Under the pieces are notes generated by a model. The model did not search any database and was not told the DNA's origin. It saw only the letters and a list, made by a program, of their open reading frames with translations. DNA of 64,000 nt, from the NCBI RefSeq assembly GCF_000026545.1, contig NC_011601.1, one strand, 5' to 3'. The position numbers were made by a program, and so were the translations under genes. Below, in pieces: positions 13,401 to 18,934 of this stretch (its first letter is position 1; each line of letters opens with the position of its first letter). Origin of the DNA: Escherichia coli O127:H6 str. E2348/69 (GTDB lineage: Bacteria; Pseudomonadota; Gammaproteobacteria; Enterobacterales; Enterobacteriaceae).

Positions 13401-13476
13401 GCCGATATAGCTCAGTTGGTAGAGCAGCGCATTCGTAATGCGAAGGTCGTAGGTTCGACTCCTATTATCGGCACCA
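13401..13476 (+). tRNA. thrW: tRNA-Thr (anticodon CGU)
   Basis: 76-nt cloverleaf GCCGATATAGCTCAGTTGGTAGAGCAGCGCATTCGTAATGCGAAGGTCGTAGGTTCGACTCCTATTATCGGCACCA; anticodon loop TTCGTAA; T-arm GGTTCGA. Confidence 0.95.
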
Positions 13477-13490
13477 TTTAAATCAATAAA

Positions 13491-13958
13491 TTACCTCACA
13501 TTTAAGTAAACCACGTTCACCTCTTGTGCCGTATTTGTGCCATTGCGACTTATAATCGCATCGATTTTGCTCGCGTGCTCGGTGAGATGCCCGGCTGAAA
13601 GGTGGGCGTATCTTTGAACCATTTCGAGAGTTTCCCATCCTCCCATCTCTTTAAGTGCAAGAAGAGAGACACCGGACTGAACCAGCCAGCTTGCCCAGGT
13701 ATGCCTCAGGTCATGGAAGCGGAAGTTGCTAATGCCTGCCCGCTTTAACGCTCCCTTCCATGCCTTGTTGCTGTCGGTTCTCATCTTCCTTACCGCTGCT
13801 GTTTTTGTTCCGTCGCTTCGGTAGGCAGGTCTGGTGTGGACAAATACCCATCTCTTATGGAGCCCCTGCTGTTTTCTTAATATCTGGCATGCGGTTTCGT
13901 TAAGAGGAACTCCGATCGCATTGCCAGCTTTTGTTTCATCAGGGTGCATCCATGCCAT
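13491..13958 (-). pseudogene. Tyrosine recombinase (phage-type integrase) C-terminal fragment, truncated next to the IS3-family element
   Basis: 155 aa ORF carrying the integrase catalytic region ('[19 protein letters not shown]...[10 protein letters not shown]'); abuts thrW 3' end; no N-terminal ~250 aa. Confidence 0.8.
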
Positions 13959-14072
13959 TTTCTTATCCAGATCGACCTGTGACCACTCAAGGTCTGTAAC
14001 TGTAGTGGCACACTGAATTTGGCCACCTGAACAGAGGTGATATGCTCACCTCAGAACAACACAGGTGCTCCA

Positions 14073-16624
<2,552 letters not shown>

Positions 16625-16762
16625 TGTTTGAAGATTGTTGTGCCGTATTTGTGACATACACATGACAACATCATGCATCAACTTTCTGTTTGTGCCATCA
16701 ACTATAGCTTAGTGAATGCGGTTAATGCTTGCTAAAACAGATAGTTATGATTGGTGCTACAG

Positions 16763-16808
16763 ATTCGTAATGCGAAGGTCGGAGGTTCGACTCCTATTAT
16801 CGGCACCA
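16763..16808 (+). repeat. Partial direct copy of the thrW 3' half (attR-like island boundary, pseudo-tRNA)
   Basis: ATTCGTAATGCGAAGGTCGGAGGTTCGACTCCTATTATCGGCACCA matches thrW positions 13431-13476 with one mismatch, and is followed by a similar TTAAATCAATAA flank. Confidence 0.85.
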
Positions 16809-17429
16809 CTTAAATCAATAAGTTACACATCATTAATACCTTCCTTATTTTTTGATTGGGACAGATTTGGGACCGATGGGTTCAGGATCGAATCTATTTA
16901 CCGTGCGTGTTCGGTAAGGTGATTAGGTGCGAGGTGAGCATATCGACGAACCATTTCGAGAGTTTCCCATCCGCTCATTTTTAAGTGCAAGCAGGGAAAC
17001 ACCGGACTAAACCTATCAGCTGTTCGAAAATGGCAAGCGGATTAATATGCCATGGCGGCTTTGAGCCGCACGCATGGGGTGTGGCAAGCCTGATGGATGT
17101 TGCTGTGCTTGTGGTGGCGTGTTTGCTGGTCTGGTTGTTGGTTAATCGCGAAAATCATTATGCCTGAGGAATACCACAGGACGTTCAGGTTTTGCATAAA
17201 AAAGCCCACCATTAAGGTGGGCAAAAGGAATGATTTATATTCTCTGAGAGAGACATTACATTTCTCCTTGCCACTTCTAACATAAAAATATGGAGAAATA
17301 ATGGAGCTTATATTAATTGGCGATTAGGTAATCATGTGGTTATACAAAACAATACAGTTCTTTACATTTGCCTTGTTTTATGAATACTCCTAAAGAGGTG
17401 TATAACATAATGGTACAAGCAGGGTAGAT

Positions 17430-18044
17430 ATGAATATATTTGAACAAACTCCACCAAACCGCAGACGTTATGGTCTTGCTGCATTCATTGGGCTGATTGC
17501 TGGCGTTGTTTCCGCATTTGTGAAGTGGGGGGCTGAAGTTCCATTGCCGCCACGTAGCCCGGTGGATATGTTTAATGCAGCGTGTGGCCCGGAATCATTA
17601 ATCAGGGCTGCTGGGCAAATTGATTGCTCCCGTAATTTTCTCAATCCTCCGTATATTTTTCTTCGAGACTGGTTGGGGCTGACAGATCCCAATGCGGCTG
17701 TTTATACCTTTGCCGGGCATGTCTTTAACTGGGTTGGTGTTACGCACATTATCTTTTCGATAGTGTTTGCTGTCGGTTATTGTGTGGTCGCTGAAGTATT
17801 TCCAAAAATTAAACTCTGGCAGGGCTTACTGGCAGGTGCTTTAGCCCAACTTTTTGTTCATATGATTTCATTCCCTCTCATGGGACTGACGCCACCTCTG
17901 TTTGATCTCCCGTGGTATGAGAATGTCTCTGAAATTTTTGGACATTTAGTCTGGTTCTGGTCTATTGAAATTATTCGCAGAGATTTACGAAACAGAATTA
18001 CCCATGAGCCAGACCCTGAGATCCCTTTAGGCTCAAATAGATAA
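17430..18044 (+). CDS. yagU: Inner membrane protein YagU (DUF1440)
   Basis: 204 aa, several hydrophobic segments, '[37 protein letters not shown]'. Confidence 0.85.
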
Positions 18045-18088: not shown

Positions 18089-18292
18089 AGGTTAAAAACG
18101 TTGCTTTTCATATTCTGATGCGGACAGTAAGTGATCATATCGCGCTACTTCAGGATGATGTAGGTCCGGAGAACGCTACAGAAGAAGAGGCATTGTTGCT
18201 GGAAAATGGAAGAAGTTTCAGGTTTTGTTGTCCCTGAAAAACGAAGCCCCGCTATTACAGCTGGCGGGGCAATGCAATTAATTATTGTATAT

Positions 18293-18622: not shown

Positions 18623-18934
18623 AATTCACCAGTACAGCTATAAATCGTAAAGAGAACTGCGGTACGTCGTATGCAGGGACGTATCGCGGTTGGCTGGTGT
18701 ACTTTCGATAGTGTGAGTATTGAATGATTTCCAGCCGTTACCGATTTTACGTCCTAATTAGTGAAGAAACCACTCGTTAGCAGGCCGCCTGGTACCTTTC
18801 CGTGTCTCCTGAACACTGTGGTGTGCATATGAGAAAGCTCATCGTTACAGGTGACATTGACGATCGCTTCCACATCATTTAATCGATTTTTGAGTCTCTG
18901 AGGTGGAATTCTTCCCTCGTCCGATGGATAAGTC

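Follow-up and report, generated by a model that had tools for sequence, protein, structure and literature searches.

The closest described counterparts of the locus analysed here belong to phrog_1443, a family of lambdoid phage genes of which CPT_21_24 of phage 21 is a representative, annotated as a 'putative membrane protein' of 96–97 aa (UMO75439.1). The family comprises 577 clusters at 90% identity, about 95–100 aa long and all named 'hypothetical', with hosts in Escherichia, Shigella, Salmonella, Citrobacter, Leclercia, Aeromonas and Comamonas. About 2,000 E. coli genomes contain several copies of the gene each, and it occurs in 46 isolated-phage records, among them phage 21, the lambda-like ev207 and mEp460. 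It always lies 3′ of the side-tail-fibre gene, usually with a 92-aa ORF (phrog_1361) in between, and is the last gene of the rightward late operon. The motifs REHTQAEYRWI and MPWWGGFD are invariant in the family, as are W72, D79 and P83, and an AlphaFold model (pLDDT 92) predicts three helices at residues 4–23, 26–53 and 74–96. Searches of Pfam, NCBIfam, PADLOC and PDB sequences returned no result that bears on the function of the family, and comparison of the model with PDB and BFVD gave no match at E ≤ 0.001.

Diverse cargo follows this gene. It consists of sitABCD, on the other strand, in phage 21; of a retron reverse transcriptase and a SLATT-domain protein in AR437; of a SAM-dependent methyltransferase in NR329; and of cdtABC in IHE3034 and PEC41. 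Copies of the phrog_1443 gene, and the cargo slots that come after it, are located as follows.

L009, 3346–3639: phrog_1443 gene of phage 21 (CPT_21_24)
L004, 3846–4139: phrog_1443 gene
L010, 6001–6291: phrog_1443 gene
L009, 3731–7132: cargo slot
L006, 4241–6140: cargo slot
L005, 4332–4988: cargo slot
L010, 6791–8891: cargo slot

The cdt-I genes are reportedly framed by lambdoid prophage genes. In the CDT-I lambdoid prophages of ExPEC (IHE3034, PEC41) a phrog_1443 gene, a hairpin and a 200-nt spacer succeed one another, and the same order is found in the window, by which we mean the whole 64,000-nt stretch of E. coli O127:H6 E2348/69 DNA that was analysed. The CDT-I prophages, however, have an intact gene, with cdtABC and a 32-nt relic of yagU in the slot, whereas the window has a truncated gene and, in the slot, an intact yagU together with a tail-fibre-assembly (tfa) relic and ykgJ. 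A second point of reference is provided by prophage remnants at thrW such as CP4-6 of K-12, which resembles the window in its attachment tRNA, its duplicated thrW 3′ end and its decayed integrase genes, but differs in that its IntF is of another integrase family and that yagP-paoABCD stands in place of window positions 16827–17268. Here we analyse a 60-aa ORF and an adjacent hairpin in this setting, and conclude, with a probability of about 0.9, that the ORF is not a gene but what remains, without function, of a lambda-like prophage gene.

Results

Locus layout and integrase relics

Positions 16700–17450 of the window are 100% identical to E. coli O127:H6 E2348/69, for which RefSeq gives the order proA, thrW, an integrase fragment, nested copies of IS3-family elements and ISEc21, an integrase pseudogene on the minus strand, a 'hypothetical protein', yagU, ykgJ and ecpE–C. 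The ST131 annotation runs from thrW through an integrase relic, a 61-aa 'hypothetical protein' and yagU to a 120-nt 'tail fiber assembly protein' and ykgJ. The features on the thrW side are the following.

13401–13476: intact tRNA-Thr gene thrW (RefSeq annotation)
16763–16808, plus strand: partial copy of the thrW 3′ end, 46 nt (BLAST of 16763–17021 against 13431–13691, 74%)
16809–17022, minus strand: C-terminal relic of a tyrosine integrase gene (PGAP pseudogene 16823–16981; six-frame translation; DNA homology to the integrase fragment at 13491–14006)
17021–17023, no strand: deletion junction between the integrase relic and a phage late-gene relic (integrase homology stops with ...CAGCT at 17022; phage-gene homology begins with TGTTCG at 17021)

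The two thrW ends include an exact 23-nt repeat (13454–13476 and 16786–16808). The direct repeat at 16763–16808 closes an IS-riddled islet (13477–16762) and opens an older prophage remnant; no third thrW repeat marking the right end of the old prophage was found within the window. Inside the islet, between thrW and the 46-nt 3′ repeat, a 516-nt integrase fragment (13491–14006, minus strand) is interrupted by an IS3-family element, which an intact ISEc21 (IS110 family; transposase 15216–16292) splits in turn. The relic at 16809–17022 reads SGVSLLALK before a frameshift and contains internal stops. Neither relic is similar to K-12 IntF, and they are therefore of a different integrase family. At 17021–17023, where integrase homology gives way directly to the relic of a phage late gene, nearly the whole prophage between the two is missing.

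K-12 MG1655 has in common with the window only positions 16763–16826 (the thrW repeat and about 16 nt) and then 17269 onward. In that strain yagP-paoABCD, 5.5 kb (L003 5273–10831), replaces window positions 16827–17268, a 442-bp segment made up of integrase relic, ORF and hairpin. The E2348/69-type segment is carried by about 1,300 of 5,426 complete E. coli genomes. A preliminary description of the sequence had set the ORF at an island/backbone junction. The ORF does straddle a junction, but this is the internal deletion junction at 17021–17023, within the older prophage remnant, and not the edge of the island; homology to K-12 resumes only at 17269.

Relation of the ORF to the phrog_1443 gene

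Two overlapping features lie across this junction.

16985–17167, plus strand: 60-aa ORF with a GTG start (ORF listing; the PGAP version is 17030–17167, 45 aa, WP_000146238.1, 'hypothetical protein')
17021–17152, plus strand: 3′ third of a phrog_1443 gene, codons about 52–96 (DNA identity of 80–84% to prophage and phage copies; PHROG match)

The preliminary description had reported a 60-aa ORF with a hydrophobic C-terminus, overlapping a degenerate integrase-like stretch, and had proposed a small membrane-protein gene that might be a remnant. The ORF is listed exactly as described, its hydrophobic C-terminal stretch being VAVLVVACLLVWLLV, and the overlap is equally real, since the PGAP pseudogene at 16823–16981 (minus strand) is prolonged by DNA homology that reaches 17021–17022. 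Six-frame ORFs of at least 60 aa number 221 in the whole window, and a terminator scan gave 1 site in 1 kb versus 0.9 expected from shuffles. Neither the ORF nor the hairpin downstream is significant on its own chance statistics. Both amount to more than chance because they are homologous to phage sequence, and the same homology identifies the ORF as a fragment.

Window positions 17022–17148 are 80–84% identical in DNA to the 3′ end of a 291–294-nt gene, the phrog_1443 gene of prophages and of the 46 phage records. When the ORF was compared with PHROG profiles, matches to phrog_1443 (E = 6.4e-10) and phrog_34165 (E = 3.2e-16) were confined to ORF residues 21–55. The former spans profile positions 62–96 of some 97, and an intact phage protein matches positions 1–96 with E = 2.4e-58. 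The helix on which the proposal of a small membrane-protein gene depended corresponds to transmembrane helix 3 in a phage protein of 97 aa, the first two thirds of which have been deleted; of the three helices and roughly 95–100 aa that characterize the family, the ORF retains this helix alone. The second profile, phrog_34165, is a separate 46-aa PHROG family that corresponds to the C-terminal half of phrog_1443 (parent residues 52–97), starting from an internal Met52. The existence of such a C-terminal-half family suggests that truncated phrog_1443 copies are repeatedly taken for genes when phages and prophages are annotated.

The composition of the ORF was resolved along its length. Its first 37 nt are antisense to the integrase relic, and from 17021 on it consists of the 3′ third of the phage gene. 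Relative to that gene, the relic has lost 5 nt near 17054–17057 (…ATGCCGTGGTGGGGCGG… to …ATGCCATGGCGG…). Because this deletion shifted the frame, only GGFEPHAWGVASLMDVAVLVVACLLVWLLVNR is in frame with the parent and constitutes the in-frame homologous portion of the ORF; the N-terminal 24 residues are out-of-frame phage sequence and antisense integrase. At the other end, the stop codon of the parent, TAA in the CDT-I prophage, has become GAA at window positions 17150–17152, and ENHYA is appended to the ORF. The ORF is a chance frame, assembled from antisense integrase relic, out-of-frame phage sequence and an in-frame C-terminal helix.

We compared the relic with the invariant core of the parent family (R40, E41, T43, Q44, A45, E46, Y47, R48, W49 and I50; M61, P62, G65, G66, F67 and D68; W72, D79 and P83). 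G65, G66, F67, W72 and D79 are kept, but residues 40–50 have been deleted, M61 and P62 fall outside the reading frame, and D68 and P83 have given way to E and L, respectively. The window copy is like phrog_1443 and CPT_21_24 in its C-terminal helix (ASLMD.AV.VVACLLVWLLVNR in both) and in its neighbourhood, the end of a phage late operon followed by cargo. It is unlike them in that it comprises the last third only, carries the 5-nt frameshift, has lost the stop and is devoid of REHTQAEYRWI. A nucleotide identity of 80–84%, a position at the late-operon end and the phage relics that flank the neighbouring cargo gene identify the window copy as a homologous relic; it is a pseudogene fragment, not a functional member of phrog_1443. 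The suggestion that the ORF 'may be a remnant' is correct.

Coding potential of the ORF

Eight alleles of the locus, a small sample representing about 3 lineages, were aligned. The 5-nt deletion is present in five of them (E2348/69, ST131, ATCC 11775, Trh52 and ATCC 25922), all five with an open frame and with PGAP proteins WP_000146238/39/40/43. The other three (2021CK-00607, WP4-S18-ESBL-09 and M172-1) are without the deletion, keep the ancestral frame and have no PGAP ORF. Owing to this indel, start and helix stand in a different frame relation from lineage to lineage, and since the deletion shifts the frame, both candidate start codons are accidental. Neither GTG 16985 nor ATG 17030 is preceded within 20 nt by GGAG, GAGG or AGGA, and a promoter scan found no promoter-like site upstream of the ORF. 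Neither a ribosome-binding site nor a start conserved in frame, by which a small-protein gene would be recognized, was found.

The 3′ end is no more constant. TGA at 17165 is found in only 2/8 alleles, the remaining 6/8 reading on into the left arm of the hairpin, and because the stop codon is polymorphic the C-terminus varies among alleles. Substitutions in the homologous part are 8 non-synonymous versus 2 synonymous (8 alleles, about 3 lineages), a pattern that, in so small a sample, would be what neutral drift gives. Within the deletion-bearing alleles, all three substitutions in the homologous part are non-synonymous, among them the helix changes C to S and A to T. Neither an excess of synonymous changes nor a stable stop, the marks of purifying selection, was seen in this small sample. 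Protein-level conservation and a recognizable ribosome-binding site had been named as checks when the ORF was first described; the ORF as such has no protein-level conservation, and no recognizable ribosome-binding site lies ahead of it.

These data bear on the idea that the relic has been exapted as a single-pass inner-membrane micropeptide of 45–61 aa that starts at the accidental ATG 17030 and serves a function of its own in the E2348/69 and ST131 lineage. The open frame in 5/5 deletion-bearing alleles, with PGAP annotation, the intact hydrophobic transmembrane helix and the roughly 1,300 complete genomes, out of 5,426, that contain the segment speak for it, but it accords poorly with the missing Shine-Dalgarno sequence and promoter-like site, with a C-terminus that depends on the allele through the stop polymorphism, or with three out of three non-synonymous substitutions in the homologous part of the deletion-bearing alleles. 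Moreover, the sister lineage has the helix in another frame with no ORF call, and invariant residues of the parent family have been lost. We consider exaptation extremely improbable. Because the helix is intact, a short membrane peptide could be made, given transcription and translation without a Shine-Dalgarno sequence; if it were, a frameshifted prophage pseudogene would have given rise to a new small protein. On the preferred reading, that of a phage-gene relic, the ORF is presumably not expressed.

The hairpin at 17204–17222

The inverted repeat beyond the ORF has the following form.

17198–17222, minus strand: intrinsic-terminator-like hairpin, GCCCACC TTAAT GGTGGGC (17222–17204) followed by TTTTTTAT, a T6 run

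Read on the plus strand it is GCCCACC-ATTAA-GGTGGGC, with a 7-bp stem containing 6 G-C pairs and a 5-nt loop. The location at about 17204–17222 and the stem in the preliminary description were correct, but the loop is ATTAA and not atta followed by AGGTGGGC. The fold has a free energy of -15.2 kcal/mol (z = -3.55 versus shuffles). In its G+C-rich 7-bp stem, 5-nt loop, T6 run and stable fold the element resembles intrinsic terminators; it differs from them in that this geometry exists only on the strand opposite the ORF, and in that no terminated gene or RNA was found in the present context. On the plus strand an A6 run precedes the stem and AAAAGGAA follows it, with no U-tract, so that a G+C-rich stem-loop with a U-run is found on the minus strand only, in keeping with the terminator scan, whose single site is on the minus strand. 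As the T-run lies on the minus strand, the hairpin is not the terminator of the ORF, and the proposed pairing of the ORF with a downstream hairpin is not supported.

Termination of plus-strand transcription, whether of the ORF or of the phage late operon, had been implied by that pairing. Its position, 36 nt past the ORF stop and about 50 nt past the position of the parental stop, would suit such a role, but on this strand the stem runs into AAAAGGAA with no U-tract, the scan reports the minus strand alone, and in ST131-type alleles the ORF extends into the left arm of the stem. This possibility is very improbable. We also tried the hairpin as a terminator of the K-12 yagP-paoABCD operon and rejected it, as K-12 has no hairpin downstream of yagP and nothing in common with window positions 16827–17268.

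The stem is identical in the CDT-I prophages, where the loop differs (ATTA versus AGTG). Across the eight alleles, positions 17183–17251 are invariant, versus about 7% variable sites in other segments; this invariance around the hairpin is suggestive only, because the interval was chosen post hoc. This invariance, together with the canonical terminator geometry on the minus strand and the retention of the stem against a background of 80% identity, could be explained if the hairpin were the 3′ end of an unannotated minus-strand small RNA transcribed from the region upstream of yagU (about 17223–17420), the ORF being irrelevant. However, no minus-strand promoter-like site was found in this region of the window or in the CDT-I copy, identity of the spacer to the CDT-I copy is about 80% and fairly uniform, with no block resembling a small RNA body, and the hairpin is missing from K-12-type strains. 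A search of 16600–17500 against Rfam 15 at a permissive E-value yielded Hrs12 as the best hit, with 25.4 bits against a gathering threshold of 70; no family came near its threshold, and all matches were centred on the hairpin and driven by it. A small RNA is thus improbable at this site.

The hairpin is part of the phage DNA that lay downstream of the phrog_1443 gene. It is somewhat likely to be a terminator of leftward, minus-strand transcription, placed where the late operon ends and the cargo begins, and would there keep transcripts that arise on the cargo side from extending antisense into the tail-fibre genes. As neither a minus-strand promoter nor a terminated gene was found, this role is read from orientation and position only.

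yagU and the cargo slot

To the right of the hairpin the window contains the following features.

17223–17423, plus strand: phage-derived spacer, preceding yagU here and a yagU 5′ relic with cdtABC in CDT-I prophages
17430–18044, plus strand: yagU, encoding a DUF1440 inner-membrane protein (annotation); a cargo gene in the phage slot, not part of the ORF
18130–18230, plus strand: tfa relic (75.5% identity to the NR329 tfa fragment, E = 4.6e-14; PGAP 'tail fiber assembly protein' in ST131)

Homology to the CDT-I prophages is continuous through the first of these. Window positions 17021–17423 are 79.7% identical to the CDT-I prophage of PEC41 (L007 4866–5270; E = 7e-101), and the IHE3034 copy is nearly identical. 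This 403-nt module takes in the gene relic and the hairpin and ends 7 nt short of the start codon of yagU. In the CDT-I prophage it links the intact 96-aa gene to cdtABC, an arrangement found intact in 64 genomes. The only sigma-70-like site detected in the region by the promoter scan lies within the spacer (17361–17388, plus strand).

Just before cdtA, the CDT-I prophages carry a 32-nt relic of the 5′ end of yagU that matches window positions 17453–17484, and the 90 nt right after cdtC are 87% identical to window positions 18659–18749, between ykgJ and ecpE. With the upstream module, the yagU relic and these 90 nt in common, it follows that cdtABC occupies the exact place of yagU, the tfa relic and ykgJ. 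A 91%-identical YagU is also encoded in a lambdoid prophage of Klebsiella (MK422450), as an internal moron with its own terminator between the Q region and the lysis genes; the upstream module is not common to this prophage and the window, the coding sequence alone matching. In K-12, yagU is treated as chromosomal and lies outside the annotated CP4-6 prophage.

The phage relics that flank yagU, the equivalence of its slot with that of cdtABC and the presence of YagU in a Klebsiella prophage together suggest that yagU, perhaps with ykgJ, is ancient prophage cargo. Alternatively, a phage may have picked up chromosomal yagU-ykgJ by aberrant excision. A literature search for yagU with prophage, moron or CDT gave nothing relevant, and no paper in the collection searched contained both 'yagU' and 'cytolethal distending'.

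Discussion

The relationships described above can be accommodated by a series of events. A lambda-like prophage would once have integrated at thrW. A single deletion would then have removed everything from the 3′ end of the integrase gene, on the minus strand at the tRNA side, to the last third of the final gene of the late operon, a phrog_1443 gene for a three-helix inner-membrane protein, fusing the two relics at 17021–17023. We infer that the 5-nt deletion and the stop mutation came later, in the lineage of E2348/69 and ST131, which would be B2. The outcome would be an open frame of 45–61 aa of which the C-terminal transmembrane helix (GGFEP...LLVNR) is the sole homologous part.

The finding is one of ordinary genome decay: an integrase relic, the frameshifted 3′ third of a phage gene and a putative phage minus-strand terminator lie together at the deletion scar of a thrW prophage. 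Its immediate consequence is a correction of annotation. The RefSeq 'hypothetical protein' entries WP_000146238/39/40/43, which come from the deletion-bearing members of the roughly 1,300 complete E. coli genomes with the segment, are a truncated, frameshifted pseudogene fragment.

The same comparison changes how the neighbouring region is to be seen. In E2348/69-type strains, what adjoins yagU on the thrW side is the right end of a lambdoid prophage, and yagU itself sits in a slot that related phages fill with cdtABC, sitABCD, a retron or a methyltransferase, which bears on how yagU entered E. coli. For lambdoid phages more generally, a conserved hot spot for cargo after the phrog_1443 gene is indicated.
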